This document shows positions 112 to 59,626 of a stretch of DNA of 64,000 bases, piece by piece. Position numbers and translations under genes: made by a program. The notes under the pieces are model-generated. The model saw only the letters and a program-made list of their open reading frames with translations. It did not search any database and was not told the DNA's origin. This stretch comes from Escherichia coli (GTDB lineage Bacteria; Pseudomonadota; Gammaproteobacteria; Enterobacterales; Enterobacteriaceae): assembly GCF_030384885.1 (NCBI RefSeq), contig NZ_CP128613.1. One strand, 5' to 3'. Every line of letters starts with the position of its first letter. The stretch's first letter is position 1.

Positions 112-114
112 CCT

Positions 115-1791
115 TTACTCCTTGTCCTGGACTTCCGGCAGTTGCCAGAAATCGAAAAAATTAAACCAGTCGAGGGGCGACTGGAGCGCGTGATGTTCCA
201 GACGCGCGGCGTAATGATCGATAGCGTTTTGCAGCGCCTGCTGGCGTTCGCCACGCGGCAACAGCAGCGGGTCGGCAAAGGTTTCGCAGTGAATATGCAG
301 CTTGCCGTGCTGGCGCAGGGCGAAAATCAGATTCACCGGGCAGCGCAAAATAGAGGCGAGAATAAACGGCCCCTGTGGGAAGGGCGCAGGCTGGCCCATA
401 AACGGACTCCAGCAGACGCGCCAGTCGCCGCCGCGTTGCGGGTTGATGGCGATGCGGTCAGCAACAATCGCCACCCATTCGCCGTTATCCAGCTTCTCTT
501 TTAGCAGGATGGCGGTGTCCGGGCCGATATCCGTCACCGGGAGCAGGTTGATGCCTGCCTGCGGGGCCATCTCCTGCATTATCTGTTTAAAACGTTGGGC
601 GTTTTCGCTAAACACCAGCGCGTTAATGGTTTTGTAGCCCTGAATTTTTGCCAGCGCCCGGCACACTTCCACATCGCCAAGATGCGAGGCCAGCAGCAAT
701 TTGCCGCGCGGATCGCTGACGTTAAGTGCCGCTTCTGCGCCTGGTGCAAACAGCACATCACGCCCGAGTTGCAGCTCGCCGCGCCAACTGGCGATTTTGT
801 CGAGCATGGCGTTGCCGAAACGTAGAAAGTGCTGATAGCTGTTGAGTTTTGCTGCCTGTGGTTGATGCTGGCGCACACGGGCGAGCCAGTCTTGCGACGC
901 TTTGCGCGCCCGGCTGGCGGTGAGCCAGTAGACGCCCACCACCGGGTAAAGCAGCGCGGTAAACGCCGTTCTTCCCAGCAGGCGCCAGACCAGCAGCATC
1001 AGGCGCATTCCCCATAATCCTTTCACTTCGCTCTGCCGCGCCCAGTGGCTGGAAGAGTGGCGCATCAGCAGCGAAGGAATACGCGGCAACATGCCGAAAA
1101 ACAGGCGCGTGTGCATGAGCGAGATGCGGACGTTATCTTTCAGGGCATCAAAGTGCGAAAGCCCGTCCAGCGGATAGGTGACGCGAGTCGGCACGAAATA
1201 GCTGGTGTTTCCCTGCCAGTAGAGGCGCACCATCACTTCGGTGTCGAAATCCATCCGCTTGCCGATGGTGGCGTGTTTTGCCAGTTGCAGCGTTGGCGCA
1301 ACCGGATAAACGCGAAAGCCGCACATGCTGTCTTTCAGTTGCAGGGAGAGCGTTTCGATCCACACCCAGACGTGGGTGACCCAGCGCCCGTACAGCCGTG
1401 AGCGGGGGATGGAGTCATCGTAAATTGGCTGGCCGGAGATCAGTGCCGCAGGGTGTTGTTCAGCGAGTGCCAGCAGTTTGGGGATATCTTCAATCGCGTG
1501 CTGACCGTCGGCATCCACCTGTACCGCATGGCTGAACCCCGCGTCTGCCGCTGCCTGTAAGCCGCGCATTACCGCCGCGCCTTTGCCTGCGTTTTCTGCC
1601 AGGCGAATTAATGTCACGCCAGGCTGTTCGGCAACCAGATTATCCAGTTGCTGTTGCGTGGCGGCATCGCTGCCGTCATCCACCACAATACAGGGCAGAT
1701 TAAATGGCTTAAGACGCGCCAGCACGCCCGGCATCATTGCGCCGTGGTTGTAGCAGGGGATCAACACGCAGGGAGAAAAGTTTACCGACAT
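115..1791 (-). CDS. bifunctional family-2 glycosyltransferase / LpxL-like lipid acyltransferase (ApeJ-like)
   Basis: 558-aa ORF; N-terminus has GT-A signatures (LIPCYNH, VVDDGSDA, VDADGQH); C-terminal half resembles lauroyl/myristoyl (HtrB/LpxL-family) acyltransferases. Family assignment by pattern recognition, not search. Confidence 0.8.
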   Translation of the reverse strand: MSVNFSPCVLIPCYNHGAMMPGVLARLKPFNLPCIVVDDGSDAATQQQLDNLVAEQPGVTLIRLAENAGKGAAVMRGLQAAADAGFSHAVQVDADGQHAIEDIPKLLALAEQHPAALISGQPIYDDSIPRSRLYGRWVTHVWVWIETLSLQLKDSMCGFRVYPVAPTLQLAKHATIGKRMDFDTEVMVRLYWQGNTSYFVPTRVTYPLDGLSHFDALKDNVRISLMHTRLFFGMLPRIPSLLMRHSSSHWARQSEVKGLWGMRLMLLVWRLLGRTAFTALLYPVVGVYWLTASRARKASQDWLARVRQHQPQAAKLNSYQHFLRFGNAMLDKIASWRGELQLGRDVLFAPGAEAALNVSDPRGKLLLASHLGDVEVCRALAKIQGYKTINALVFSENAQRFKQIMQEMAPQAGINLLPVTDIGPDTAILLKEKLDNGEWVAIVADRIAINPQRGGDWRVCWSPFMGQPAPFPQGPFILASILRCPVNLIFALRQHGKLHIHCETFADPLLLPRGERQQALQNAIDHYAARLEHHALQSPLDWFNFFDFWQLPEVQDKE

Positions 1792-2135
1792 AGGCGGATC
1801 TTCCCGCTACTGGCGGTGTGGCGGGCGTCACCGTCGTGACGCTGATAACTAAAGCTCAGAATCTGGCGTTCTTCCTGCCAGCTAAGCGTGAGTGTGACGC
1901 GGTTATCCGGCAGCAATGGAGCCTGGAATTTGATGTTCTGAATGGAGTGAAAACGCCAACCGGGCGCGAGCAGGGCAAGCGCGTAACTCATCGCCCAGTC
2001 GATTTGTGCCACGCCGGGGAGTAATGGTTGTACGGCAAAATGACCGCGAAACCAGAACAGATCTGCCCTGAGATGCAAAACAATCTCAAGGTGATTCACT
2101 TGTGCCTGATGGCGCTCGATTTCATGGGGCTTCAT
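1782..2135 (-). CDS. FabA/FabZ-like hotdog 3-hydroxyacyl-ACP dehydratase
   Basis: Motif FRGHFAVQPLLPGVAQIDWAMS resembles the FabZ motif F.GHFP..P.MPGV; start placed at the ATG (2133-2135) preceded by AGGAG rather than the track's upstream ATG at 2165; overlaps the upstream gene's stop by 14 nt. Confidence 0.75.
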   Translation of the reverse strand: MKPHEIERHQAQVNHLEIVLHLRADLFWFRGHFAVQPLLPGVAQIDWAMSYALALLAPGWRFHSIQNIKFQAPLLPDNRVTLTLSWQEERQILSFSYQRHDGDARHTASSGKIRLCR

Positions 2136-3483
2136 GAAATAACTCCTGTAATTGCGCATAGACACGCTTGTTCATACTGTTTACTGGCATTTCATCAATA
2201 ACGCGCCAGTAACGCGGAATAGCAACTGGCTCCAGCGTCGGGCGCAGTAATCGCCGCCAGGCCATTTCCTGGCTGTGCCCGCCGCCGTTTTGCCATTGCA
2301 GGCGAGCTTCGTCATCCAGCACCAGCAAAACGCCAATACTCTGACGCCCGCCGCGCGTAACGGGAACTGCCGCCGCCTCGTGAATACCGTCCAGCGCCAG
2401 CAGACGTTGTTCTACTTCCTGGAGTGAAATGCGTTTTTCTTCAATCTTAACGATGCGTCCGCGACGCCCCATCAGATGGAACTGGCCGTCTTCGCTAAAC
2501 TGCAAGATATCGTCGAGTAACAGGCCGCTATCTTCCTCCATCAGAGGTGAAAAGAGACGAAAGGCATCATCTTCGGCCTGGAACTGCATACCTGGAAAGG
2601 GCCGCCAGCGGCGTTGCTCTTGTTCGCGGTAACGCCAGGCGATGACGCCGGTTTCCGTGCTGCCGTAGATTTCATCAGGCCAGACGCGCAGCCAGCTCGC
2701 GGTGTGTTGTACGTCCTGCCACGGTAGTTCACCGCCAGCGGACAGAAGCACCTGAACGGGGGGCGGGGATAGCTGAGCATCCAGACGCTTCAAAAATGCC
2801 GGGCTGCTGATGAAGATATAGCGATGCTGATGACTCAACGCGGCAAACTGTTCGACATACCAGAGCATGGCGGCATGGAGCGGTAATCCCAGCGCCATGG
2901 GCAGGAAAACGCGAAAAGTCAGGCCGTACAAATGCTGCGGCAATACGGAACCGATGACACGACATCCGGCAAGACGTGCGCCTAATCGTTCAGCCAGCAG
3001 TTCTGCTTCACGGTCCAACAAACGAACAGGTTTAATCACCCGCTTCGGCTGCCCTGTGGAACCAGAGGTAAACAGCTCGATATAAGCGTCTGGCGCTATA
3101 GCGGCAAAGGTGAATGATTGTGTCGCGACTTGTGGGGAGCTTGCTACCAACTGCAATGAACCTTGGCAGTTAAGTTCGCTGTCGCTAAGCACACCATCGA
3201 ACAGTTCACGTTGCTCGTTAAGCTGGATGACGCGGTTATGCCCCGGAAGCACCGGTGTTTTTCCGGCGTGTAGCGTGGCGAGCAGGGCAACGATAAACAG
3301 ATAGCAGTCCTCAAAGCACAGCGCCCAGCGTTCACCTGGTTGTTGCTGTAAACGGCAGATAAGTTGCGAGACATCGTGACGCAAATCGCCCAGCGTCCAG
3401 GTGCTTTCGTCCAGCCACGCAATGGGCGTGTCATCAGAGCGTGGCGCAGTCAGCCAGCGTGCAAGCGGTAAGGTCTGCTTCAT
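2122..3483 (-). CDS. AMP-dependent synthetase/ligase (acyl-ACP/acyl-CoA synthetase-like)
   Basis: TSGSTGQPK AMP-binding motif; start placed at the ATG that overlaps the upstream TGA as ATGA (3480-3483); the track ORF extends to 3522. Confidence 0.8.
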   Translation of the reverse strand: MKQTLPLARWLTAPRSDDTPIAWLDESTWTLGDLRHDVSQLICRLQQQPGERWALCFEDCYLFIVALLATLHAGKTPVLPGHNRVIQLNEQRELFDGVLSDSELNCQGSLQLVASSPQVATQSFTFAAIAPDAYIELFTSGSTGQPKRVIKPVRLLDREAELLAERLGARLAGCRVIGSVLPQHLYGLTFRVFLPMALGLPLHAAMLWYVEQFAALSHQHRYIFISSPAFLKRLDAQLSPPPVQVLLSAGGELPWQDVQHTASWLRVWPDEIYGSTETGVIAWRYREQEQRRWRPFPGMQFQAEDDAFRLFSPLMEEDSGLLLDDILQFSEDGQFHLMGRRGRIVKIEEKRISLQEVEQRLLALDGIHEAAAVPVTRGGRQSIGVLLVLDDEARLQWQNGGGHSQEMAWRRLLRPTLEPVAIPRYWRVIDEMPVNSMNKRVYAQLQELFHEAP

Positions 3484-4061
3484 GAGCGATCTCTTTTCAT
3501 CACCTGACGGCGCACCAGCCATTCACCAGCCATTAACGTCCCCATCAACAAATAAGCAATCATGCCGTTCCAGGCAGTCCATAACGACATATCGCCATGC
3601 AGCGCGGTAAAGAGGGCAATTCCGCCGTTGATGATGAAAAAGCCGCACCAGATTTGCGTGACGTGGCGGGTATAGCGCACGCCCTTTTCCGGGAGGTCTG
3701 GCTCCTGCAAACGCGCCAGCCGCTCAACAATTGGCATTGCCGACCACAGCGAACCGCCAAAAACCGCCAGCATTACCGCGTTAACCACTACCGGGTAAAA
3801 CAGCAGTAGCTGGTGCGTTTTCAACAGAAAGCTGGCAACACACAAGGCGATACCCACAACAGCGACGATTTGTGTGACGGCTTGTAGCGGCCCGGCCTGG
3901 CAACGAGTCTGGCGCAGGCGCAATAAAAGCAGCAGCGCCATCAGCGGCAACAGCCAGTGCAGGCCGTTATGTGCCAAACCAAGCCAAATCACAAACGGCC
4001 AGGCGAGCAGCAATAATCCAGTCAGCAGTTTAATAATCGGTAGCGAGCGAATGCCCGACAT
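3480..4061 (-). CDS. integral membrane protein of the lipid-biosynthesis cluster
   Basis: 193-aa ORF, several hydrophobic segments, co-directional and translationally coupled within the cluster. Confidence 0.7.
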   Translation of the reverse strand: MSGIRSLPIIKLLTGLLLLAWPFVIWLGLAHNGLHWLLPLMALLLLLRLRQTRCQAGPLQAVTQIVAVVGIALCVASFLLKTHQLLLFYPVVVNAVMLAVFGGSLWSAMPIVERLARLQEPDLPEKGVRYTRHVTQIWCGFFIINGGIALFTALHGDMSLWTAWNGMIAYLLMGTLMAGEWLVRRQVMKRDRS

Positions 4062-4065
4062 CAGA

Positions 4066-4317
4066 TCAGGCTTCTTGTAGCAGGCGTTCTACGGCCTCTA
4101 CGACATCCCGGACTGTACGCACTGCTTTAAACTCTTCCGGCTTGATTTTCTTACCGGTTTTCTTTTGCAGATGCACAATCATGTCAACGGCGTCGATGCT
4201 GTCCAGTTCCAGATCTTCGTACAGGCGCGCTTCAGGTTTGATGTCCTGCGGTTCGATTTCAAACAGCTTAACCAGCAGAGCTGAGACTTCCTGATAGACG
4301 GTTTGTTGTTCTGTCAT
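4066..4317 (-). CDS. acyl carrier protein
   Basis: 83 aa, acidic, LDSIDAVDMI phosphopantetheine-attachment motif. Confidence 0.85.
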   Translation of the reverse strand: MTEQQTVYQEVSALLVKLFEIEPQDIKPEARLYEDLELDSIDAVDMIVHLQKKTGKKIKPEEFKAVRTVRDVVEAVERLLQEA

Positions 4318-4328
4318 GATGGCTTTCC

Positions 4329-4586
4329 TCAGGCACGTTGTGCAGCAATAAAAGAGGCCAGAGTGGCGACAGAGAAAAAGTGCTGACGCATCTCTTCACT
4401 TTCCGCAGAAAGTACAACGCCATATTCATTTTTCACTGCCAGCCCCAGTTCCAGGGCATCGATAGAGTCCAGCCCTAAACCGTCGCCAAACAGTGGCGCG
4501 TCGGTATCGATATCATCAGGAGCCAACTCGTCCAGATTGAGGGTGCTGATGATGAGATTTTTAATTTCCAGATAAAGCGCTTGCAT
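4329..4586 (-). CDS. acyl carrier protein
   Basis: 85 aa, GLDSIDALELG phosphopantetheine-attachment motif; 5' end overlaps the upstream acyltransferase gene, so the exact start is uncertain. Confidence 0.8.
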   Translation of the reverse strand: MQALYLEIKNLIISTLNLDELAPDDIDTDAPLFGDGLGLDSIDALELGLAVKNEYGVVLSAESEEMRQHFFSVATLASFIAAQRA

Positions 4587-5382
4587 TATTTATTCCTGAG
4601 AGAGGTAAACAACCTTGTTGTAATTGAAGCAAAAGATGCCGGTTTAACTGCCTTGCTGCTAGCGCCGGTTCTTGTGAAGTTGCATCGTAAAATTTATTGA
4701 TTTCTACCCGCCCACGGACTTCAACCGTAAAAAGTGGCCTGGCAGGTGGAACGTCATACCATTTACTTTGTTTATCCAGCAGATGCTCGCTACAGCCGAT
4801 CGTCACGATGCGTAAATCGCTGGCGCAGCGCACGGCAATATTCGCCGCACCGCGCTGTAACGTCATTTTTTCACCAGGCTTCGTCCGCGTGCCTTCGGGG
4901 AAAATCAAGATAGTGTCGCCCTGTGCCAGTCGCTGTTGGCAACGGGGTAAGAGAGTTTCAGCTTCGCTGTTGATTAAATAATCTGCCGCCCGCACGACGC
5001 CGCCAAGAAAAGGATTTTTTAACAGCGCGCTTTTTACCAGGCAGTCAGTTTCTGGCATGACTGATGCCAGTAGTACGTAATCGATAAGCGTGGGATGATT
5101 AGCTACGACGAGGCAACCGCGTTCCTGACGTAAAATTTCAGCCCCATCAATACGATAATCCAGCACGCCAAGCCCTTTTGCGACTGTTAAAAACAGACGA
5201 AAACTGGCGGCAATGCTGCGACGCGCCAAACGACGGCGGCGGGAAGTGTTCCACACCAAAACTAACAGTACGTTAAACCACACCACAGAGAGTAGTAGTC
5301 CGCCGAGGCCAAACAGGGCAAAACACAACCCGGTCATAACCAGTCGCCATGTCCATTCCAGGCGTGACATCAGCTTACTCAT
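4561..5382 (-). CDS. PlsC-family (lysophospholipid/1-acylglycerol-3-phosphate-like) acyltransferase
   Basis: 273 aa; N-terminal transmembrane segment, NH-x4-D motif (ANHPTLID) and FPEGTRT motif. Confidence 0.8.
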   Translation of the reverse strand: MSKLMSRLEWTWRLVMTGLCFALFGLGGLLLSVVWFNVLLVLVWNTSRRRRLARRSIAASFRLFLTVAKGLGVLDYRIDGAEILRQERGCLVVANHPTLIDYVLLASVMPETDCLVKSALLKNPFLGGVVRAADYLINSEAETLLPRCQQRLAQGDTILIFPEGTRTKPGEKMTLQRGAANIAVRCASDLRIVTIGCSEHLLDKQSKWYDVPPARPLFTVEVRGRVEINKFYDATSQEPALAARQLNRHLLLQLQQGCLPLSGINNASALSGN

Positions 5383-6125
5383 CTACGGCTCCAGCGCCAC
5401 TGTACGCGCTCACCAGGAAGTGAAAAAGCATCTGAATTTTGTAAATAGTGCTGTAAAAACAACATGCTTTGCGGCAGTGTTGTTTCATTGCCCGCAATGG
5501 CTGGCTGTGTTTCACATTGCCACTCATCGCCAGCTTCAATCACCAGCGCAACAGCATATGGCCAGGTCGGCATTTCTGCTGGGAGCTGCGGATGATAGAA
5601 CTCAGGTAGAAAGCCATCAAAATCGACCATCAACACACGCTGGTATCCCGCTTGTAGCAGGCTAAGCACTTCACTCAAACCTTGCTGGAAAGTGTCGCGA
5701 CCAGCCGAAAGCGATGACGAAACGATCGGCTGTTTGGCCGCAATGGTCAGGTTACCCACGGAAGAGTTGTGTACTGAAAGTGCAAAGTCGGTGGGGGAAA
5801 GCGCCTGTTCAGTTGCCAGTGCATGAACAATGCGGTAATTGCGCTCCAGTTCGCCATGACGACTGGTATACAAAACGGCGTCTGGCTGATGGCGGCGTAG
5901 CATTGCCAGGCCGCATTCAACAGCCAGTTTGCTGCCTGAACTGAGGCGGCGGGCGGTCATCATTGGCAGTTCACTTAATTTTGCCAACGGCGCGGCAGGG
6001 TCAATCGCCCACGGCTGGCGCGACCATGCTTGCCATTGCTGCGCTTCGCTAAGTCCAGGCGCCAGTGCCTGCCAGTCGGTAATATTTAATGTAAATTTCA
6101 TCAACGCGCGCCCGCGGTAAACCAA
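5379..6125 (-). CDS. hypothetical protein, possibly beta-ketoacyl-synthase N-terminal-like domain (chain-length-factor-like)
   Basis: 248-aa ORF with ATGA overlap to the downstream acyltransferase; function inferred only from position in the cluster and vague resemblance; needs an HMM search. Confidence 0.6.
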   Translation of the reverse strand: MVYRGRALMKFTLNITDWQALAPGLSEAQQWQAWSRQPWAIDPAAPLAKLSELPMMTARRLSSGSKLAVECGLAMLRRHQPDAVLYTSRHGELERNYRIVHALATEQALSPTDFALSVHNSSVGNLTIAAKQPIVSSSLSAGRDTFQQGLSEVLSLLQAGYQRVLMVDFDGFLPEFYHPQLPAEMPTWPYAVALVIEAGDEWQCETQPAIAGNETTLPQSMLFLQHYLQNSDAFSLPGERVQWRWSRR

Positions 6126-6141
6126 AATTATTAAGTGACGA

Positions 6142-7209
6142 TTATTTCTTTTGGCATATCAAAAGAGTATGCCCAACGCCTAAATTATCGTGGCGCTCTG
6201 CTACCTGAAATCCTGCTTTATTCAGATAGTCGTAAAATTTCTCTGCACTATAGAAACGGCTGTTACCGTTTGCCATGCAGGTGAAATAAAGTGAGGACGC
6301 GTTCAGGCTAAATGATGCTGCTTCAAACCGCTGCGCATCCCAGAACAACTCCATGATGCAAACTTTTGCGCCAGGCTTCATTACGCTGGCGATTTTGCTG
6401 AGTATGCTAATTATTTGTTCGGGTGAAAAACAGTCTAAAAATTGGCTCATCCACCAGATATCAGCCTCGCCCGGTAATGGGGCATCGCTTAGCATATCCA
6501 CCGCATGGAAATCTATGCGATCAGAAAAACCTGCATTCGCGATATTTTCTTTCGCTAGTACGATTTGTTGTGGCAGATCTAATAACGTCACGGCGATGTT
6601 TTCATTGTATTTGCAGCAACGCAAAGCCCACTTACCCGTATTGCCGCCTACATCGTACAATGTTGTGGGGTTGTTGGCGAATACATAAGGCAGTGCGGCG
6701 TTAAATGCGCCATCTGAATAGTAATGATCAAACGCAAACCAGCTTTCACGAGCGGCATCTGGTAATTGTGAAAGTGCGGGATATATCGTCGACCAGTCGC
6801 CAAATACTTTTAACCCGGACGGTTTTCCTTCATTGAGTGAATCGGCGAGGAAGAAGAGCCCCTGATAGCAGACATCCTGGGTGAAATCCATATTCACGCG
6901 AGTCATAGTGTCATGCAGGAGGTAATGACCGATTTTCGCCAGGTAATACATTCCCTCTTTACAGGTAATAATTCGCCCGCTTAAGCCCATATCTAACAGA
7001 ACGCTGGCCGCATATTCGTTGATATGGCTATGTTCGGTGATATCAGCCAGCGTTGCGCCATGTTTGCCTTGCCGATCCAGATATGAAAGTACACCCGCAT
7101 TACGTAGGCAGAGAGCTGTTTGAAAAAGCATGGGGGCAAAGGCAATGCGTTGAGCTTCGGTAATCGCATCCAGTGCGCTAAGAGAATCCTGTTCGTACAT
7201 GTTGGGCAC
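6142..7209 (-). CDS. class I SAM-dependent O-methyltransferase
   Basis: 355 aa; VGGNTGKWA glycine-rich SAM-binding motif followed by LLDLP...DM..D, typical of O-methyltransferase family 2. Confidence 0.85.
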   Translation of the reverse strand: MPNMYEQDSLSALDAITEAQRIAFAPMLFQTALCLRNAGVLSYLDRQGKHGATLADITEHSHINEYAASVLLDMGLSGRIITCKEGMYYLAKIGHYLLHDTMTRVNMDFTQDVCYQGLFFLADSLNEGKPSGLKVFGDWSTIYPALSQLPDAARESWFAFDHYYSDGAFNAALPYVFANNPTTLYDVGGNTGKWALRCCKYNENIAVTLLDLPQQIVLAKENIANAGFSDRIDFHAVDMLSDAPLPGEADIWWMSQFLDCFSPEQIISILSKIASVMKPGAKVCIMELFWDAQRFEAASFSLNASSLYFTCMANGNSRFYSAEKFYDYLNKAGFQVAERHDNLGVGHTLLICQKK

Positions 7210-7268
7210 AACCTGTTAAGAGGGAATTAAATTATTATCGGACCGAAGCGGCCCGACTTTAGGGGAAA

Positions 7269-7658
7269 TTACAAATCTGCGCCAGCCGACAAATTCAGTT
7301 GAATATCTTTGTCGAGATTGCGGACCCAGCGATTATAGTTTTTATGAATTTGTCCGCCTGATGCTTGCAGGTTCTGACTATTTTCATAATTGATATCGTA
7401 GCTGGATGCCGTGTAGTTAATGCGAATTTCGGCTGAATGATCGCGTGACTGTTGACGTGCTTTAATTACGCCTTGTCCGGCTTCGGACATAATCCATTTG
7501 CGTTCAACGCCAGCTTTCAGAATCGCTTTTTTCACTTGTTCCGGGGTATGACCAGCGCTGACGGTTGAGTGAACCTGATCAATTGGCGCAGTACGCGCGC
7601 AACCCGCTAAAGCACCCACAACAGCAATAGCCGCAAACCATTTCATGTAATGTCTCAT
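7269..7658 (-). CDS. small lipoprotein, first gene of the cluster in this window
   Basis: 129 aa; signal peptide with lipobox LAGC (MKWFAAIAVVGALAGC); exact start (7658 vs 7646) uncertain. Confidence 0.65.
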   Translation of the reverse strand: MRHYMKWFAAIAVVGALAGCARTAPIDQVHSTVSAGHTPEQVKKAILKAGVERKWIMSEAGQGVIKARQQSRDHSAEIRINYTASSYDINYENSQNLQASGGQIHKNYNRWVRNLDKDIQLNLSAGADL

Positions 7659-12414: not shown

Positions 12415-12723
12415 ATGGATTATTTAATTCCAGTTTGTCTGGTATTGCTGGGATTGCTCGCGATCTTCACCCCCAATTGGCTGATCCCTGTTTTTATCGT
12501 CGTGGGGGGATGGCTGGGGGTACTTGCCTGGGGTTGGCTCTGGCTAATGATTTTTTTACCTTTACTTAACGGTGTCGGGCTTGCTTATGCCCTGTGGTTG
12601 ATGTTCAAAAGGCCATCCATAGCATCCCGCCTGGTTGCTGCATGCTGTGTTATCTCCGTCATTCTGATGTTAGCGCTTTATTATGCTTTCCTGACTATGC
12701 CGCCGTTCCCGCCTCAGCACTAA
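12415..12723 (+). CDS. hypothetical small hydrophobic protein (unverified ORF)
   Basis: 102-aa ORF directly after the BIME; Trp/Leu-rich with 2-3 predicted transmembrane segments (GGWLGVLAWGWLWLMIFLPLL); weak Shine-Dalgarno; could be a chance ORF. Confidence 0.3.
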   Translation: MDYLIPVCLVLLGLLAIFTPNWLIPVFIVVGGWLGVLAWGWLWLMIFLPLLNGVGLAYALWLMFKRPSIASRLVAACCVISVILMLALYYAFLTMPPFPPQH

Positions 12724-22896: not shown

Positions 22897-22939
22897 TCAT
22901 TAATCGGCAACTTTGGGTTGCCGCCAAATTGCTAATATC

Positions 22940-23050
<111 letters not shown>

Positions 23051-23096
23051 CAGGCAATTTCTCGTTGGTCATCACTTTTGAAATCAAACTTGACGA

Positions 23097-23480
23097 TTAA
23101 CGCTTCTCCCAGCCGCCCTGTTGTGCCGTAAACCCCAGCGCCTGCATAAACGCCGTCATCACGCCGCGATCTTCCACGCCTGCATCCGCCATCCACCAGC
23201 CTGAAACGCCGGGATTGTTACGCAAAACCTCTTCCAGCAAATATTGCCCCACACCGCGACGTCGGGTGACTTCCCGCACGCGCAGGGAATCCAGTGCCCC
23301 CTCGGTGCCGCTTAAGGTTACGCGCACGGCAGCAAGCAGGCGCTCGTTAAAACGCGCGGCGTAGATGCGGTGGTTATCGTCAACCTGTAAAGAGGAAGAT
23401 GAATACTCCGGCCAGATCTTTTGCAGATCAATCCGGTCCTGGTCGCTAAAGTGTTCTAATCGAATGATGGTCAGCTTCAT
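23097..23480 (-). CDS. panM: PanD maturation factor PanM/PanZ (YhhK), GNAT fold
   Basis: 127 aa; recognised (MKLTIIRLEHFSDQDRIDLQKIW...). Confidence 0.92.
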   Translation of the reverse strand: MKLTIIRLEHFSDQDRIDLQKIWPEYSSSSLQVDDNHRIYAARFNERLLAAVRVTLSGTEGALDSLRVREVTRRRGVGQYLLEEVLRNNPGVSGWWMADAGVEDRGVMTAFMQALGFTAQQGGWEKR

Positions 23481-23903
23481 GGGGAACCCGTGTAAATCAC
23501 AAAAGTGGAACCAGTGTAGCGAAATAATTTAATCGGAGGCTTTCTCTTTTTTATTTCTTTTGGCAGGTGATTAATTTTTTAACAGCAATAATTACAAATT
23601 AAAAACATTAGAGAATGAAAAATGTCCAGCATAATCCCCTGAATGGTAGTGAATTATTCCGCCCTTTGTACCGTTATTTTATGCTGACAACGGCGCTTTT
23701 TTCTGTTTATCTATCAATAAATTCAGAATATTATCTGTTCTTAATCGACTGAAAAATAGGGATTTTAATCGCTATTATCACAAAACACTGCGCTAAACCC
23801 TTAATCAGACAGGCAAAAACAGTGCAGTATAAAAAAAGTACAGTCTGATTTGTTAACACATAAAAACAAAGCAACACAACATCACGAATGGGGATTTTTG
23901 ACT

Positions 23904-25987: not shown

Positions 25988-27261
25988 AACCGATGCATAT
26001 TGCAATGGCGCTGCTCTCTGCCGCCATGTTCTTTGTTCTCGCGGGCGTCTTTATGGGTGTGCAACTGGAGCTGGACGGCACCAAACTGGTGGTCGATACG
26101 GCTTCAGACATCCGTTGGCAGTGGGTGTTTATTGGCACTGCGGTGGTCTTTTTCTTCCAGCTTGTGCGACCTGCGTTTCAGAAAGGATTGAAAAGCGTTT
26201 CCGGGCCGAAGTTTATTCTGCCCGCGATTGATGGCTCCACGGTGAAGCAAAAGCTGTTCCTCGTCGCACTGTTGGTGCTTGCGGTGGCGTGGCCGTTTAT
26301 GGTGTCGCGCGGGACGGTGGATATCGCCACCCTGACCATGATCTACATTATCCTCGGCCTCGGGCTGAACGTGGTGGTGGGGCTGTCTGGCTTACTGGTA
26401 CTGGGTTACGGTGGTTTTTACGCCATCGGCGCTTACACCTTTGCGCTGCTCAATCACTATTACGGTCTTGGCTTCTGGACCTGTTTGCCGATTGCCGGGT
26501 TGATGGCGGCGGCGGCGGGCTTCCTGCTCGGCTTCCCGGTGTTGCGTTTACGTGGCGACTATCTGGCGATCGTTACCCTCGGTTTCGGCGAAATTGTGCG
26601 CATATTGCTGCTCAATAACACGGAAATCACCGGCGGTCCGAACGGAATCAGTCAGATCCCGAAACCGACACTCTTCGGACTCGAGTTCAGTCGCACCGCC
26701 CGCGAAGGCGGCTGGGATACGTTCAGCAATTTCTTTGGCCTGAAATACGACCCGTCCGATCGCGTCATCTTCCTCTACCTGGTGGCGTTACTGTTGGTGG
26801 TGTTAAGCCTGTTTGTCATTAATCGCTTACTGCGGATGCCGCTGGGCCGCGCCTGGGAAGCGTTGCGTGAAGATGAAATCGCTTGTCGTTCGCTGGGCTT
26901 AAGCCCGCGTCGTATCAAGCTGACTGCCTTTACCATCAGCGCTGCGTTTGCCGGTTTTGCCGGAACGCTGTTCGCGGCGCGTCAGGGATTTGTCAGCCCG
27001 GAATCTTTCACCTTTGCCGAATCGGCGTTTGTGCTGGCGATAGTGGTGCTCGGTGGTATGGGTTCGCAATTTGCGGTGATTCTGGCGGCAATTTTGCTGG
27101 TGGTGTCGCGCGAGTTGATGCGTGATTTCAACGAATACAGCATGTTAATGCTCGGTGGTTTGATGGTGCTGATGATGATCTGGCGTCCGCAGGGCTTGCT
27201 GCCCATGACGCGCCCGCAACTGAAGCTGAAAAACGGCGCAGCGAAAGGAGAGCAGGCATGA
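25984..27261 (+). CDS. livM: branched-chain amino acid ABC transporter permease LivM
   Basis: 425 aa; ATGA overlap with livH stop. Confidence 0.97.
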
Positions 27262-28025
27262 GTCAGCCATTATTATCCGTTAACGGCCTGATGATGCGCT
27301 TCGGCGGCCTGCTGGCGGTGAATAACGTCAATCTTGAACTGTACCCGCAGGAGATCGTCTCGTTAATCGGCCCTAACGGTGCCGGAAAAACCACGGTTTT
27401 TAACTGCCTGACCGGTTTCTACAAACCCACCGGTGGCACTATTTTACTGCGCGATCAGCATCTGGAAGGTTTGCCCGGCCAGCAAATCGCCCGCATGGGC
27501 GTGGTGCGCACCTTCCAGCATGTGCGTCTGTTCCGTGAAATGACGGTGATTGAAAACTTGCTGGTGGCGCAGCATCAGCAACTGAAAACCGGGCTGTTCT
27601 CCGGCCTGTTGAAAACGCCATCCTTCCGTCGCGCCCAAAGTGAAGCGCTCGACCGCGCCGCCACCTGGCTTGAGCGCATTGGTTTGCTGGAACACGCCAA
27701 CCGCCAGGCGAGCAACCTGGCCTATGGTGACCAGCGCCGTCTGGAGATCGCCCGCTGCATGGTAACGCAGCCGGAGATTTTAATGCTCGACGAACCAGCG
27801 GCAGGTCTTAACCCGAAAGAAACCAAAGAGCTGGATGAGCTGATTGCCGAACTGCGTAACCATCACAACACCACTATCTTGTTGATTGAACACGATATGA
27901 AGCTGGTGATGGGGATTTCAGACAGAATTTACGTGGTCAATCAGGGGACGCCGCTGGCAAACGGTACGCCGGAGCAGATCCGTAATAACCCGGACGTGAT
28001 CCGTGCCTATTTAGGTGAGGCATAA
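27258..28025 (+). CDS. livG: branched-chain amino acid ABC transporter ATPase LivG
   Basis: 255 aa; Walker [10 protein letters not shown]. Confidence 0.97.
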
Positions 28026-28026
28026 G

Positions 28027-28740
28027 ATGGAAAAAGTCATGTTGTCCTTTGACAAAGTCAGCGCCCACTACGGCAAAATCCAGGCGCTGCATGAGGTGAG
28101 CCTGCATATCAATCAGGGCGAAATTGTCACGCTGATTGGCGCGAACGGGGCGGGGAAAACCACCTTGCTCGGCACGTTATGCGGCGACCCACGCGCCACC
28201 AGCGGGCGAATTGTGTTTGATGATAAAGACATTACCGACTGGCAGACGGCGAAAATCATGCGCGAAGCGGTAGCGATTGTCCCGGAAGGACGTCGCGTCT
28301 TCTCACGCATGACGGTGGAAGAGAACCTGGCGATGGGCGGCTTTTTTGCCGAACGCGACCAGTTCCAGGAGCGCATAAAGTGGGTGTATGAACTGTTTCC
28401 GCGTCTGCATGAGCGCCGTGTTCAGCGAGCGGGCACTATGTCTGGCGGTGAACAGCAGATGCTAGCGATTGGTCGCGCTTTGATGAGTAACCCGCGTTTG
28501 CTACTGCTTGATGAGCCATCGCTCGGGCTGGCACCGATTATCATCCAGCAAATTTTCGACACCATCGAACAACTGCGCGAGCAGGGGATGACCATCTTCC
28601 TCGTCGAGCAGAACGCCAACCAGGCGCTAAAGCTGGCGGATCGCGGCTACGTGCTGGAAAACGGTCATGTAGTGCTCTCCGATACCGGCGACGCGCTGCT
28701 GGCGAATGAAGCAGTGAGAAGTGCATATTTAGGCGGGTAA
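28027..28740 (+). CDS. livF: branched-chain amino acid ABC transporter ATPase LivF
   Basis: Recognised from MEKVMLSFDKVSAHYGKIQAL (237 aa); Walker A GANGAGKTT. Confidence 0.96.
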   Translation: MEKVMLSFDKVSAHYGKIQALHEVSLHINQGEIVTLIGANGAGKTTLLGTLCGDPRATSGRIVFDDKDITDWQTAKIMREAVAIVPEGRRVFSRMTVEENLAMGGFFAERDQFQERIKWVYELFPRLHERRVQRAGTMSGGEQQMLAIGRALMSNPRLLLLDEPSLGLAPIIIQQIFDTIEQLREQGMTIFLVEQNANQALKLADRGYVLENGHVVLSDTGDALLANEAVRSAYLGG

Positions 28741-28858
28741 ATTATCGAATACCCGGCAGCCACGTTCTGCCGGGCTCTTCGTCCGTATACAGACTTGTTT
28801 CAACAGACCGGGAGGATTAAAACCAGACCACTTATTTGCCACGGAAAGGTTCCCTCCC

Positions 28859-29605
28859 ATGCATTATGCCGTTGTCGTCATGCTTGAACTGCTTTGCTGT
28901 ATTCACGCTTACCGTACTGGACAAGAGCGGTATTGGATTTTTATCATCTTCTGTTTTCCGGTGATTGGCTGCGTGGCGTATTTTGTCATGGTGATGCTGC
29001 CAGAAACGGGCGCTGACCGTCACGGGCGTACCTTTCTGATGCGCCTGCAGGACAAAATCAATCCGGAACGTCACCTGCGCAAATTAACCGAAGAGCTGGC
29101 GATTGCCGAGACCAATCAAAACCACTATCAACTTGCCAACGAGCTGGCGCGTCTGGAGCGTTACCACGAAGCCGTTCCCCATTATCAGCAGGCGTTAAGC
29201 GGGATATTCGTCCATGAAGCGGCAATGATGCTAAGCCTGGCGCAGGCGCAGTTTGCCATTCAGGAGTTCGCCGCCTGTCAGCAGACGCTGGAAGATGTGA
29301 TGCGTTATAACCCCGATTTTCAGTCGGCAGACGGACACTTGTTATTCGCCAGAACCTTAGCCGCCCAGGAGAAATACGCTGACGCGGAAAGCGAGTTTGA
29401 AGTATTGATTTCTTATTACCCCGGCCCGCAGGCACGTATTTTCTATGCGGAAATGCTGGCGAAAATGAGTCGACTACGTGAAGCCAACGAGCAATATGTT
29501 GCTGTGGTTGATACGGCTAAACGCTCAAGACCACATTATAGAAAACACCACCGGGAATGGATTAAGACCGCCAATGACCGGCTGAAGCAGAGTATTGTTC
29601 GATAA
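28859..29605 (+). CDS. hypothetical membrane-anchored protein: PLDc_N-like two-helix N-terminus plus helical (TPR-like) soluble domain
   Basis: 248-aa ORF with E. coli-like codon usage; N-terminus YWIFIIFCFPVIGCVAYFVMVML resembles the cardiolipin-synthase N-terminal (PLDc_N) motif W..II...P..G...Y; followed by its own hairpin terminator; weak Shine-Dalgarno. Confidence 0.6.
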   Translation: MHYAVVVMLELLCCIHAYRTGQERYWIFIIFCFPVIGCVAYFVMVMLPETGADRHGRTFLMRLQDKINPERHLRKLTEELAIAETNQNHYQLANELARLERYHEAVPHYQQALSGIFVHEAAMMLSLAQAQFAIQEFAACQQTLEDVMRYNPDFQSADGHLLFARTLAAQEKYADAESEFEVLISYYPGPQARIFYAEMLAKMSRLREANEQYVAVVDTAKRSRPHYRKHHREWIKTANDRLKQSIVR

Positions 29606-29610
29606 GTGCT

Positions 29611-29641
29611 GCGCCAGATAGTCTCTGGCGCATTAATTTTT
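29611..29641 (+). terminator. rho-independent terminator after the 248-aa ORF
   Basis: Perfect 8-bp stem gcgccaga/tctggcgc, then attaattttt. Confidence 0.6.
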
Positions 29642-29700
29642 CCCAACGTAGCATTATCCGTGCCCCATCTCCCATTTTCCCTCACCCGTACCGTCACCGC

Positions 29701-29745
29701 CTTGTCATCTTTCTGACACCTTACTATCTTACAAATGTAACAAAA
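29701..29745 (+). promoter_or_regulatory. ugpB promoter Pho boxes (PhoB binding)
   Basis: cTTGTCATctttCTGaCAC and the following direct-repeat-like segments match the Pho box consensus CTGTCATA(A/T)A(T/A)CTGTCA(C/T), about 100 bp upstream of ugpB. Confidence 0.65.
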
Positions 29746-29837
29746 AAGTTATTTTTATGTAATTCGAGCATGTCATGTTACCCCGCGAGCATAAAACGCG
29801 TGAATTCGCGCATTCGGTACAACAAGAGAGATAAACG

Positions 29838-31154
29838 ATGAAACCGTTACATTATACAGCTTCAGCACTGGCGCTCGGACTGGCGTTAATGGGGAATGCA
29901 CAGGCAGTGACGACCATTCCGTTCTGGCATTCTATGGAAGGGGAATTGGGTAAAGAGGTGGATTCTCTGGCCCAACGTTTTAACGCCGAAAACCCGGATT
30001 ACAAAATTGTACCGACCTATAAAGGCAACTACGAACAGAATTTAAGCGCGGGGATTGCCGCATTTCGTACCGGCAACGCGCCGGCTATTTTGCAGGTTTA
30101 TGAAGTTGGCACCGCCACCATGATGGCGTCGAAAGCCATTAAACCGGTGTATGACGTGTTTAAAGAAGCGGGGATTCAATTCGATGAGTCGCAGTTTGTG
30201 CCGACGGTTTCAGGCTACTACTCCGACAGCAAAACCGGTCACTTACTCTCCCAGCCGTTCAACAGCTCGACTCCCGTTCTCTATTACAACAAAGATGCTT
30301 TCAAGAAAGCGGGATTAGACCCGGAACAGCCGCCGAAAACCTGGCAGGATCTGGCAGACTATGCCGCGAAACTGAAAGCCTCCGGCATGAAGTGCGGCTA
30401 CGCAAGCGGCTGGCAGGGCTGGATCCAACTGGAAAACTTTAGCGCCTGGAACGGTCTGCCGTTTGCCAGCAAAAACAACGGCTTTGACGGCACGGACGCG
30501 GTGCTTGAGTTCAACAAGCCGGAGCAGGTGAAACACATCGCCATGCTCGAAGAGATGAACAAGAAGGGCGATTTCAGTTACGTCGGGCGTAAGGATGAAT
30601 CCACCGAGAAGTTCTATAACGGTGATTGCGCGATGACGACCGCTTCTTCCGGTTCTCTTGCCAACATTCGCGAGTATGCCAAATTCAACTACGGCGTAGG
30701 TATGATGCCTTACGACGCCGATGCGAAAGATGCGCCACAAAACGCCATTATCGGCGGGGCCAGCCTGTGGGTGATGCAGGGCAAAGATAAAGAAACTTAC
30801 ACCGGCGTGGCGAAGTTCCTCGACTTCCTCGCGAAGCCAGAAAACGCTGCCGAGTGGCATCAGAAAACCGGTTATCTGCCAATCACCAAAGCGGCGTATG
30901 ACCTGACCCGTGAGCAGGGCTTTTACGAGAAAAACCCCGGGGCGGATACCGCGACGCGTCAGATGCTGAACAAGCCGCCGTTACCGTTCACCAAAGGGCT
31001 GCGTCTGGGCAACATGCCGCAGATCCGCGTGATTGTGGATGAAGAGCTGGAGAGCGTGTGGACCGGTAAGAAGACACCACAGCAGGCGCTGGATACCGCC
31101 GTTGAGCGTGGGAACCAGTTACTGCGCCGCTTTGAGCAGTCTACGAAGTCTTAA
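29838..31154 (+). CDS. ugpB: sn-glycerol-3-phosphate-binding periplasmic protein UgpB
   Basis: 438 aa, recognised. Confidence 0.97.
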
Positions 31155-55131: not shown

Positions 55132-56649
55132 ATGGAAAGAATAATGCAAAACAGAAAATGGATTTTGACCTCGCTGATAATGACTTTTTTCGGCATCCCC
55201 ATACTGGCGCAATTTTTGGCAGCGGTTATTGCCATGCTGGGGGCCGGGCTTGCCGCTATTCTTGAGGCTTGCAATTTACTCTTTACGCCAACAATTTATC
55301 TTCTACTCAACGTCTTTATGCTGACGCTGGGGGCGATAATCCTATTTTTCTCTGGTCGCGTGTGGGCCGGTGATAGCGCACCAGAAAACAGAGAAATAGC
55401 CGTCTGGCGGCAATGCTTTTTTCTTTTACCTGCACTGTTAACTCTGGTTGGCTGGATAATCACGCTACATCTGGCAGATTATCAATTTCGCCAAATGGGA
55501 GCAGGTTGGTTGGCAGAGCTTATGCTCCCCTGGCTGGGAGTTTTGTTAGTCTCATTAGTCGGAGGTGAGTTCTGGTGGATAGTCATTATACCCGTTGGTG
55601 CGCATATTAGTTTTTCGCTGGGGTATGGCTGGCCGACCAGATATCCTTTAACCGGCACGTACGGGTTACGTTGCCGTAATTCCCTCCTGTTTATCCTTCT
55701 CATGCTTGGTTTTATCGCTGGTTATCAGGCTTATTTATATAAACAGATTAATCCCGGCGTCGGTGTGCGTGAAAATATTGATACCTGGGCCTGGCGACCC
55801 GATAAACTCAATAATCAACTGACGCCACTGCGTGGTAAACCGCAAATTCAGTTTACACAAAACTGGCCGCGACTCGATGGTGCTACGGCGGCGTACCCAA
55901 TTTATGCTTCTGCCTTTTATGCGTTGAGCGTTATACCGGAAGATTTCCACACATGGGAATATCTGGAGAACTCTCGTACCCCCGATGCATATAACAGGAT
56001 TGTTAAAGGTGATGCCGATATTATTTTTGTGGCGCAACCTTCCGGTGGGCAGAAAAAACGTGCAGAGGAATCGGGCGTCACTTTGAACTACACTCCTTTC
56101 GCCCGTGAAGCATTCGTTTTCATCGTCAATGCGGATAACCCGGTTAATTCCCTGACTGACCAACAGGTGCGTGACATCTTCAGTGGCGCAATTACCAACT
56201 GGCGTACTGTTGGCGGTAACGATCAGGAGATCCAGACCTGGCAACGCCCGGAAGACTCTGGCAGCCAGACAGTGATGCAATCGCAGGTCATGAAAAATGT
56301 CCGCATGATCTCGCCGCAGGAAACCGAAGTGGCAAGCATGATGGAGGGAATGATTAAAGTTGTTGCCGAATACCGTAATACAAACAACTCAATAGGCTAC
56401 ACCTTCCGCTATTACGCAACACAAATGAATGCCGATAAAAATATAAAACTGCTAGCTATTAACGGTATTGCACCGACTGCGGAAAATATTCGTAACGGCA
56501 AATATCCATATATCGTCGATGCCTTTATGGTAACGCGGGAAAATACTACGTCAGAAACACAAAAACTGGTCGAATGGTTTTTAACGCCGCAGGGGCAGAG
56601 TCTGGTGGAAGATGTGGGTTATGTACCGTTGCATACAACAATGAAATAA
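55132..56649 (+). CDS. hypothetical fusion protein: N-terminal multi-pass membrane domain + C-terminal PstS-like (PBP-like) periplasmic binding domain
   Basis: 505-aa ORF; the first ~230 aa are hydrophobic helices; the C-terminal domain carries PstS-family-like segments (NSLTDQQVRDIFSGAITNWRTVGG, WQRPEDSGSQTVM); start may instead be the ATG at 55144. Confidence 0.8.
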   Translation: MERIMQNRKWILTSLIMTFFGIPILAQFLAAVIAMLGAGLAAILEACNLLFTPTIYLLLNVFMLTLGAIILFFSGRVWAGDSAPENREIAVWRQCFFLLPALLTLVGWIITLHLADYQFRQMGAGWLAELMLPWLGVLLVSLVGGEFWWIVIIPVGAHISFSLGYGWPTRYPLTGTYGLRCRNSLLFILLMLGFIAGYQAYLYKQINPGVGVRENIDTWAWRPDKLNNQLTPLRGKPQIQFTQNWPRLDGATAAYPIYASAFYALSVIPEDFHTWEYLENSRTPDAYNRIVKGDADIIFVAQPSGGQKKRAEESGVTLNYTPFAREAFVFIVNADNPVNSLTDQQVRDIFSGAITNWRTVGGNDQEIQTWQRPEDSGSQTVMQSQVMKNVRMISPQETEVASMMEGMIKVVAEYRNTNNSIGYTFRYYATQMNADKNIKLLAINGIAPTAENIRNGKYPYIVDAFMVTRENTTSETQKLVEWFLTPQGQSLVEDVGYVPLHTTMK

Positions 56650-56674
56650 CTTTTGAGAGAACGGAATCAGCGCG

Positions 56675-57667
56675 ATGAATAAATTCATAGGCGTTTTACT
56701 GCTAGGTGCGGTTTTACTGGCGGGATGTGTCGACCGGGAAGGCTACTATAACAGCGTCAGGGAAGAAGACAGCCATGGACTGACGACTCTGCGGGGGCAA
56801 CCTGAATTACGTTACAACGATGATTGGTCAAGATGGCCGAGAGTATACGGCGCTACAGCCTTATACCCGCTGTATGCCTCCGCGTATTATGAATTAGTAC
56901 CCGAGCCAAAAGATAAGGATCGAACCTCGCTGGCCTGGCAGGCGTATGGTTTGCAACAAACCCGAACAGCTGAAGCCTACGATAGTCTGATCAAGGGTAC
57001 CGCGACGGTTATTTTTGTTGCACAACCGTCGGAAGGACAGAAAAAACGTGCAGAAGAAGCAGGCGTTAAACTGAAATATACCGCGTTTGCCCGCGAAGCC
57101 TTTGTCTTTATCGTTGATATCAAAAACCCGGTTAATTCACTTAGCGAACAGCAGGTCAAAGACATTTTTAGCGGTAAAGTGAGTCGCTGGAATAAAGTGG
57201 GCGGCGGTGACGAAAGTATAAAAGTCTGGCAGCGGCCAGAAGATTCTGGAAGCCAAACGGTTATGAAGGGACTGGTTATGCAAGATACTCCAATGCTGCC
57301 AGCCAAAAAATCCACTGTTATCGATCTTATGGGCGGTTTAATTACCGAAGTCGCCGACTACCAAAACACAACATCTTCCATTGGATACACCTTCCACTAT
57401 TACGTCACACGTATGAATGACAATATGCTCAAAATGCGCAAACAGATCAAACTGCTAGCTATAACTGGCATTGCGCCTACAGAGGAAAATATCCGTAACG
57501 GCACTTATCCGTACATAATTGATGCTTATATGGTGACGCACGAAACCCCTGCGCTGGAAACGCAGAAATTCGTCGACTGGTTTTTAAGCCCGCAGGGACA
57601 GCAATTGGTAGAGGATGTGGGGTATGTGCCGATTCATGACGCATCATACGAATCATCAGTGCAATAA
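56675..57667 (+). CDS. hypothetical PstS-like (PBP-like) lipoprotein, paralogue of the C-terminal domain of the upstream gene
   Basis: 330 aa; lipobox LLAGC; long identical/near-identical stretches with the preceding protein (FVAQPS.GQKKRAEE.GV, NPVNSL..QQV.DIFSG, WQRPEDSGSQTVM, IGYTF.YY.T.MN). Confidence 0.85.
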   Translation: MNKFIGVLLLGAVLLAGCVDREGYYNSVREEDSHGLTTLRGQPELRYNDDWSRWPRVYGATALYPLYASAYYELVPEPKDKDRTSLAWQAYGLQQTRTAEAYDSLIKGTATVIFVAQPSEGQKKRAEEAGVKLKYTAFAREAFVFIVDIKNPVNSLSEQQVKDIFSGKVSRWNKVGGGDESIKVWQRPEDSGSQTVMKGLVMQDTPMLPAKKSTVIDLMGGLITEVADYQNTTSSIGYTFHYYVTRMNDNMLKMRKQIKLLAITGIAPTEENIRNGTYPYIIDAYMVTHETPALETQKFVDWFLSPQGQQLVEDVGYVPIHDASYESSVQ

Positions 57668-58269: not shown

Positions 58270-58376
58270 TTCCCTGACTCAAAAAGTAGGTCAGATTGTT
58301 GACAAAGTGCGCTTTGTTCATGCCGGATGCGACATGAACGTCTTATTGGCCTACAAGACCATGCAAATTGTAGTGG

Positions 58377-59626
<1,250 letters not shown>

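Follow-up and report, generated by a model that had tools for sequence, protein, structure and literature searches.

The cardiolipin synthase ClsA carries an N-terminal hairpin of two transmembrane domains which, as experiments have established, holds its globular domain on the cytoplasmic side in wild-type cells (PMC11698083). In the same study, published in 2025, a positively charged linker with a net charge of +3 was identified as the retention signal, two glutamates added at the place equivalent to the end of the hairpin described below flipped the domain to the periplasm, and the hairpin was found to mediate a lipid-dependent topological inversion, while its PxxG motif proved dispensable both for activity and for flipping (PMC11698083). 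Here we describe an Escherichia coli gene in which a hairpin of this type, the PLDc_N module, is joined to a tetratricopeptide repeat (TPR) domain. The gene lies between livF and ugpB in a stretch of 64,000 nucleotides from contig NZ_CP128613.1 (assembly GCF_030384885.1), called the window below, and our overall best guess, made with low to moderate confidence, is that its product would be a membrane-tethered, cytoplasm-facing TPR adaptor. In the literature searched, we found no published function for this protein and no published description of the PLDc_N-TPR combination. RefSeq and UniProt already contain the open reading frame (ORF) with its domain labels; the PLDc_N-TPR family to which its product belongs is without a characterised member or a curated model.

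A PLDc_N hairpin joined to a TPR domain

The 248-codon ORF is present exactly where a first-pass annotation of the window had placed it, between the end of livF (28740) and the start of ugpB (29838), and in the identical genome NZ_CP027579.1 it is a RefSeq coding sequence (CDS), WP_000558846.1, named 'hypothetical protein'. Its start codon is backed by a family alignment, in which methionine occupies position 1 in 91% of sequences and 155 of the 164 are without an N-terminal extension. The gene and the two parts of its product are placed as follows.

28859-29605, + strand: ORF of 248 aa with an ATG start
28862-28999, + strand: PLDc_N-type two-helix membrane hairpin, residues 2-47, from Pfam, hhalign, AlphaFold 2 (AF2) and hydropathy
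29066-29599, + strand: residues 70-247, comprising an N-cap helix, four TPR repeats (86-112, 121-150, 157-186 and 191-222) and C-terminal capping helices

The hairpin consists of helix 1 (residues 2-20), a loop (R19-TGQER-Y25) and helix 2 (residues 25-52), the last with a kink at P34. Helix 2 carries the motif W26-IF-II-FCF-P34-VI-G37-CV-AY41, which agrees letter for letter with the pattern W..II...P..G..AY that the first-pass annotation had likened to the cardiolipin synthase N-terminal domain, and which has the W-x7-P-x2-G-x3-Y spacing of ClsA. In a search with hidden Markov models (HMMs), the Pfam family PLDc_N (PF13396) matches residues 26-43 (E 5e-4), placing the protein in that family with a match that is weak but consistent and covers helix 2 only. 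When profiles were compared using hhalign, the second hydrophobic helix aligned to ClsA residues 37-61 (E 2.6e-4, at a probability of only 42%). By Kyte-Doolittle (KD) hydropathy, helix 1 is marginal (1.48) and helix 2 strong (2.55); the two hydrophobic N-terminal helices of a PLDc_N protein are thus seen both in the AF2 helices and in the KD profile, and membrane insertion is predicted. No cleavable signal peptide or lipobox was found in the protein.

The rest of the protein, described in the first-pass annotation as helical and TPR-like, proved to be so: several Pfam TPR models match residues 89-227, and the domain has the tandem 34-residue helix-turn-helix repeats and superhelix of the TPR superfamily. 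AF2, run with a 19-sequence alignment, gave a model with a mean predicted local distance difference test score (pLDDT) of 87.7, in which a linker helix (54-67) has lower confidence, the four helix pairs have pLDDT values above 90, and C-terminal helices extend to residue 247. The tail (residues 220-248) holds 10 K/R in 29 residues and has an isoelectric point of 11.7, and the soluble domain contains one cysteine, Cys139, which is unpaired and not conserved.

A word-indexed search found only 30 relatives of this protein. When 1.84 billion cluster representatives (at 50% identity) were searched in full with an HMM, 638 matched at E<1e-30, almost all of 240-255 aa, alike in architecture and aligned from end to end. 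Members recovered from AFDB50 and by a genome scan come from the Gammaproteobacteria (Xenorhabdus, Gilliamella, Pseudomonas, Xanthomonas, Lysobacter, Luteimonas, Methylomagnum), the Alphaproteobacteria (Bradyrhizobium, Rhodopseudomonas, Maricaulis, Methylobacterium), the Betaproteobacteria (Ralstonia, Saezia) and the Desulfobacterota (Desulfonema). The sole names given to family members are 'TPR protein', 'membrane protein' and 'Cardiolipin synthase N-terminal domain-containing protein'. At E<=1e-3, 43 of 52 diverse relatives match TPR_19 and 16 match PLDc_N, a number that rises to 39 at E<=0.1.

When the 164-sequence alignment was examined, the best-conserved non-structural positions, with the Ala, Gly and Leu positions of the TPRs set aside, were H16 (98%), W26 (99%), P34 (93%), G37 (99%), Y41 (99%) and P48 (96%), all of which lie in the hairpin or at its end. 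This is therefore a large uncharacterised family whose most conserved residues sit in the type of hairpin that anchors cardiolipin synthase. Helix 1 also has conserved polar residues, at Q/E10 and H16. The inter-helix loop is frequently basic (R/K at position 19 in 95%, at 22 in 67% and at 24 in 35%), acidic residues are common at the end of helix 2 (58% at position 45 and 70% at position 49), and the family linker, residues 48-62, has a mean charge of +3.07/-1.15. The linker of the window allele has only +3/-2 (net +1), with E49 and D53 directly after helix 2.

Curated collections were also searched. When NCBIfam was applied to the protein and ten distant relatives, every model stayed below threshold, the recurrent best being SctY at no more than 44.7 bits with a cut-off of 70. 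None of the PADLOC anti-phage defence models matched the protein at E<=1, and searches of the PDB by sequence and by profile gave generic TPR matches only.

Distribution, ancestry and expression signals at the livF-ugpB locus

The liv and ugp operons are adjacent in K-12, as the first-pass annotation had noted: in MG1655, livF (b3454) and ugpB (b3453) are separated by a 398-bp spacer, and an alignment to this interval shows no such ORF there. The gene's accessory status holds across the species. Using blastn (word size 11) against 5,426 complete E. coli genomes, we found the ORF in 659 (~12%), at 660 places, with every copy chromosomal, at the livF-ugpB locus and with at least 80% of the ORF covered; carriers include O157:H7, whose Sakai copy is ECs4300, and O145:H28. 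The window allele itself is rare, being matched at >=99% identity in 1 genome, at 95-99% in 77 and at 90-95% in 581. No remnant of the ORF was found by this search in the other 4,767 genomes. The gene is cleanly present or absent at one fixed place in the chromosome, a natural polymorphism that would make isogenic gain and loss work easy.

A four-way alignment placed the gene in a variable segment of 913 bp (28741-29653, + strand). K-12 homology ends at the livF stop codon and restarts at 'TTATCCGTGCCCC' (29654), from which point the window holds the ugp promoter region (29654-29837) common to K-12. In place of the 913-bp segment, K-12 and an ST131-like strain have ~214 bp of unrelated filler. 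A decayed remnant of the gene in K-12 was considered and rejected, as blastn detects the ORF in the 659 genomes only and the K-12 filler aligns by chance. By the repetitive extragenic palindromic (REP) consensus, we take the filler to hold REP palindromes of bacterial interspersed mosaic elements (BIMEs). In the MG1655 livF-ugpB spacer (positions 2827-3224 of our locus sequence L012), paired REP-like palindromes (BIME) are found, together with a livF terminator hairpin of the filler's own, GGAGTC-AAAA-GACTCC-TTT. In NZ_CP032679.1 (L003), an MG1655 derivative, ugpB, ugpA, ugpE and most of ugpC are gone, and a 96-bp ugpC fragment adjoins the ugp promoter.

Interruption of the ORF in most strains, a possibility raised by the first-pass annotation, was not what we saw: in the carriers sampled the CDS is intact and not a pseudogene, apart from two copies. 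In E. coli ECO2947 the gene is split by an IS3 insertion (L094 1149-3156), and in the E. albertii type strain NBRC 107761 a 1-bp deletion, possibly a draft-assembly error, truncates the ORF to 202 aa (L019 6001-6743). These are two independent inactivations.

The gene is under purifying selection. Between the window allele and the O157 allele, the synonymous divergence (dS) is 0.30 and the nonsynonymous divergence (dN) 0.024, giving a dN/dS of 0.078, and values of 0.075-0.115 were obtained for the other intact Escherichia alleles. Since the dS of the flanking genes livF, livG and ugpB between the window strain and O157 (0.18-0.30) is similar to that of the gene, the gene diverged together with its surroundings. 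Such a dS across livG, livF and ugpB (window 27258-31154 against L002 of O157) seems high within a species, and suggests that the livF-ugpB locus lies in a haplotype block that is old or has recombined. The C. freundii orthologue has a protein identity of 75%, as against 90-98% for the flanking proteins, so that the protein evolves faster than its neighbours, yet is clearly constrained.

The order livF-gene-ugpB is also found in E. whittamii, E. albertii, two other Escherichia species, Citrobacter sp. NCU1 and a Pseudocitrobacter metagenome-assembled genome; the 90%-identity cluster that holds the E. coli alleles takes its NCBI name from an E. fergusonii protein. In C. freundii the gene is at livF-ugpB too, but is separated from ugpB by four unrelated genes, namely two small hypotheticals and a PhdYeFM/Fic toxin-antitoxin pair (L005, L006 and L007, 6850-8324). 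Because C. freundii holds these additional genes there, the livF-ugpB spacer acts as a hot spot for accessory genes.

No phage sequence matched the protein, and matches in the plasmid collection were limited to Ralstonia and Methylobacterium replicons of 1.6-2.3 Mb and a partial one on a 373-kb Comamonas plasmid. The flanks of the ORF are livF and ugpB, and no mobility genes lie beside it; the marks of mobile-element cargo, which would be presence on phages or transmissible plasmids or a flanking integrase, insertion sequence or tRNA, are not found here. Recent horizontal acquisition was accordingly rejected, there being no mobility genes, the same site being used in sister species, and the dS of flanks and gene being alike. 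In Escherichia and Citrobacter the gene looks to be a long-standing occupant of the livF-ugpB spacer, not mobile cargo, and we infer that it has been lost, repeatedly, from ~88% of sequenced E. coli, among them K-12.

The segment also holds candidate expression signals.

28752-28774, + strand: hairpin right after livF, CCCGGCAG-N7-CTGCCGGG, with a weak T tract; read from the sequence, not called by the consensus scan
28795-28822, + strand: candidate promoter, with a -35 element TTGTTT (28795-28800), a 16-nt spacer and a -10 element TTAAAA (28817-28822)
28843-28849, + strand: weak Shine-Dalgarno sequence GGAAAGG, 9 nt before the ATG, conserved among Escherichia alleles
29610-29642, + strand: intrinsic terminator found by the terminator scan, a stem-loop (29610-29632) with a 9-bp stem (6 G-C pairs), followed by TTAATTTTTC

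The hairpin at 28752-28774 is a probable, leaky terminator of the liv operon. A consensus promoter scan of the 118-bp leader called none, and the candidate promoter matches the consensus weakly; because the leader has diverged around the block ACAGACTTGTTTCA...GGAGGaTTAAAa, which is itself kept from E. coli through E. whittamii and E. albertii to C. freundii, the candidate is probably a weak sigma-70-type promoter of the gene. The weak Shine-Dalgarno sequence and the gene's own hairpin terminator had both been noticed in the first-pass annotation, and both were recovered; the terminator is conserved in E. whittamii. The codon usage reported there as native-like is so only roughly: the G+C content of the ORF (50.9%) is close to that of the window (52.4%), but its G+C at third codon positions is 56% as against 66-73% in its neighbours, and its rare codons amount to 6.5% as against 1-3%. 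Such values suggest expression that is low relative to the transporter genes. Rfam covariance models gave no match at E<=1 over 28600-29900. An antisense ORF of 125 aa inside the gene (29058-29435, - strand) is absent from the annotation of the RefSeq record and was treated as an artefact. On the 3' side, the O157 allele has ~127 extra bp (L002, about 2407-2640, the counterpart of window 29606-29653), in which another hairpin resembling a terminator, GGCAGCAAAATT...AATTTGCTGCC, precedes a run of T's, and its last codons differ from those of the window allele (...QSVVQ against ...QSIVR).

To place the gene in its wider setting, the ORFs around 80 family loci were clustered by all-against-all BLAST. 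This revealed lineage-specific synteny only, and several of the clusters were spurious antisense ORFs in high-GC genomes. The loci in Enterobacteriaceae have liv and ugp neighbours, whereas those in Pseudomonas and Xanthomonadales have unrelated, differing ones, which on our own reading of the sequences are presumably a LysR-type regulator and a monooxygenase in Pseudomonas, and tilS and ispA in Xanthomonadales. No gene neighbour is conserved across the 80 loci, none of which shows a cls or lipid gene linked to the family. The gene is a loner, as the first-pass annotation had it, with a terminator of its own; it works alone and belongs to neither the liv nor the ugp transporter. Since the synteny is only lineage-specific, the position beside liv and ugp says nothing about function.

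Elsewhere in the window, positions 1-7646 (- strand) hold the end of an aryl-polyene-type lipid biosynthesis cluster, with genes for an ApeI dehydratase, two acyl carrier proteins, a chain-length factor, a lysophospholipid acyltransferase, a glycosyltransferase of family 2 (GT2) and a methyltransferase; the cluster corresponds to ECs4324-4342 of Sakai, and K-12 is without it at that position. Positions 12415-12723 (+ strand), between tusA and zntA, encode an annotated hypothetical protein of 102 aa. The livJ-livK spacer (22897-23849) is shorter than its Sakai counterpart and holds panM only; Sakai has an acetyltransferase/antitoxin pair, ECs_4307/4308, between panM and livJ (L013 16978-17778). 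Between glgP and glpD, positions 55132-59553 hold two genes for PstS-family phosphate-binding proteins, a 200-aa hypothetical and an IS3-family transposase, and look like an accessory insertion.

Orientation and possible roles

The ORF is a working chromosomal gene, and we tentatively read its product as a small protein of the inner membrane, a membrane-tethered TPR adaptor or scaffold at the cytoplasmic face, although as a whole this explanation falls a little short of an even chance. In such a protein, the hairpin of residues 2-47 would provide the inner-membrane anchor, as the same module does in ClsA; a basic linker helix would come next, followed by the four-repeat TPR domain ending in its strongly basic tail. 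If the orientation follows that of ClsA, the two ends of the protein would both be at the cytoplasmic face, and so would the TPR domain, whose groove would bind a partner protein and hold it at the membrane. Because it is the most conserved part of the family, the hairpin may have a specific role: it probably does more than anchor the protein, and would itself recognise a lipid or a membrane partner. The first-pass annotation had proposed a membrane-associated adaptor or regulator from both architecture and position; the hairpin and TPR domain are in keeping with the former, while position lends nothing, as no neighbours are conserved across lineages.

Several findings weigh against this view. 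The charges leave the topology unsettled, as the inter-helix loop is itself positive, and the +3/-2 linker of the window allele has E49 and D53 beside helix 2, at the point where two glutamates export the ClsA domain. Helix 1 is marginally hydrophobic (KD 1.48), with its conserved polar Q/E10 and H16. The similarity of the TPR domain to known proteins is generic, with no curated family cut-off reached, and the lack of a conserved neighbour points to no pathway. Moreover, since the PxxG motif of ClsA is dispensable, high conservation of the hairpin is no proof of a specific role.

Taking orientation by itself, a cytoplasmic TPR domain seems moderately likely, because of the precedent of the ClsA hairpin and the net-positive family linker. 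The main rival keeps the same anatomy and turns it round: the R19-R24 loop would be cytoplasmic, helix 1 would be interfacial or would span the membrane N-out, helix 2 would act as a signal anchor, and the TPR domain would be periplasmic, an envelope-side scaffold or chaperone like YfgM, CpoB or PelE. This arrangement would suit the conserved positive charge of the loop (about +2.2), the weak hydrophobicity of helix 1 and the acidic end of helix 2 (58% at position 45, 70% at 49), to which the window allele adds D53 and a linker of net +1, and the ClsA two-glutamate (2E) mutant shows such acidity to be enough for the export of a downstream domain. Wild-type ClsA, with its homologous hairpin, is uniformly C-in, however, the family linker is net positive, and translocating a tail with 10 K/R in 29 residues would be costly. 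The protein also has no cleavable signal peptide or lipobox, the only cysteine of its soluble domain is unpaired and unconserved, and cytoplasmic TPR proteins (the sub-threshold SctY; MamA, YrrB and IpgC) fit the fold as well or better. We therefore regard the periplasmic orientation as unlikely, if a serious contender. The hairpin could alternatively be the business end of the protein, sensing or organising anionic or non-bilayer lipids or pairing with the hairpin of ClsA, which would modulate cardiolipin synthesis or its leaflet; the TPR domain might then cross the membrane with lipid composition or osmotic down-shock, like the ClsA catalytic domain. All six of the best-conserved non-structural positions are in the hairpin, its W-x7-P-x2-G-x3-Y spacing is identical to that of ClsA, the information by which ClsA inverts its topology in response to lipids lies in its hairpin (PMC11698083), and the family's retention charge (+1 to +2) is weaker than the +3 of ClsA. 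The case is purely analogical, however, with no cls or lipid gene linked in the 80 loci, ClsA is unaffected by PxxG mutations, and K-12 and most E. coli regulate cardiolipin without the gene, all of which makes this improbable. It is more doubtful still that the hairpin is a lipid-responsive topology or partitioning module through which the family couples lipid state (the balance of phosphatidylethanolamine and cardiolipin, or osmotic down-shock) to the capture and release of clients; by analogy with ClsA, the TPR domain might move from one side of the inner membrane to the other, or the hairpin might pair with that of ClsA and so tune where cardiolipin is made.

A role tied to the locus, as a regulator or accessory subunit of the ATP-binding cassette (ABC) transporters Ugp (glycerol-3-phosphate, Pho regulon) or Liv (branched-chain amino acids), would account for the position between livF and ugpB being conserved in Escherichia and Citrobacter, and read-through from liv is possible, as the hairpin after livF is without a good T tract. 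Homologues in Pseudomonas, Exilibacterium, Xanthomonadales and other lineages adjoin unrelated genes, though, and in C. freundii four unrelated genes come between the gene and ugpB; it has its own terminator, and the ugp promoter region (29654-29837) is common to K-12, where both operons work without the gene. Such a role is highly improbable. Least credible of all is a decaying or non-functional ORF persisting in some lineages. Its loss from 88% of genomes, the copy split by IS3, the 1-bp deletion in the E. albertii type strain and an excess of rare codons over its neighbours would fit decay, but dN/dS is about 0.08 over a dS of about 0.3, the ORF is intact in all other sampled carriers, and hundreds of full-length homologues with near-invariant residues are spread across the Proteobacteria. 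Because selection acts on the gene, a dead ORF is excluded.

As matters stand, the gene is one more annotated 'hypothetical/TPR' accessory gene, and the finding mainly tidies the locus. In addition, the family makes it possible to study the role of a ClsA-type hairpin in a second setting, one that is non-enzymatic.

Comparison with known systems

Like ClsA, the protein has two N-terminal membrane helices, with W-x7-P-x2-G-x3-Y in helix 2 at identical spacing, and a positively charged linker before a globular domain. It differs in that the PLD/HKD catalytic domain is absent, a TPR domain taking its place, in that helix 1 is less hydrophobic and has a family-specific invariant His16, and in the weaker charge of its linker. 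With the cardiolipin synthase model TIGR04265, only 13.7 bits are reached (cut-off 290), over residues 22-99 only, and Pfam finds no PLDc domain; because it has no PLD domains, the protein is not a cardiolipin synthase. Small PLDc_N proteins, stand-alone or fused, such as the PLDc_N-SHOCT proteins, are likewise short and non-catalytic, with the hairpin as their membrane module at the N-terminus (PMC3581485), but a 180-residue TPR array is found in our protein where PLDc_N-SHOCT proteins have a short SHOCT tail.

The favoured functional model is LapB (YciM), which acts in FtsH-dependent LpxC turnover and is likewise an N-terminally membrane-anchored TPR adaptor. LapB has a single transmembrane helix, about nine TPRs and a C-terminal rubredoxin domain, and it is the longer protein, its chains in the PDB having 339 and 371 residues. 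Profile similarity to the LapB structures 4zlh and 7wzb is weak (E 1e-6 to 1e-5), and one AFDB homologue of our protein has been automatically named LapB. The LapB/YciM model NF008756 gives 13.6 bits against a cut-off of 474, and our protein is without a Cys-rich C-terminus.

YfgM, CpoB (YbgF) and PelE, the last likened here without sequence comparison, differ in being periplasmic TPR proteins which lack the PLDc_N hairpin and belong to defined operons or complexes; the CpoB/YbgF model TIGR02795 reaches 30.1 bits against a cut-off of 90.1, and the locus has no tol-pal neighbourhood. MamA, YrrB, PilF/PilW and SctY/IpgC are also without the hairpin, have 9-20% identity to the protein and match it below the curated cut-offs. 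For SctY, the chaperone of type III secretion systems (NF052415), the score is 18.3 bits here and no more than 44.7 in relatives, against the cut-off of 70, and no type III secretion genes are nearby. The sequence thus places the protein in two domain families only, PLDc_N and TPR, and outside the cardiolipin synthase, LapB, CpoB and SctY families; by analogy, it would nevertheless work like the anchored TPR adaptors LapB, YfgM and PelE.
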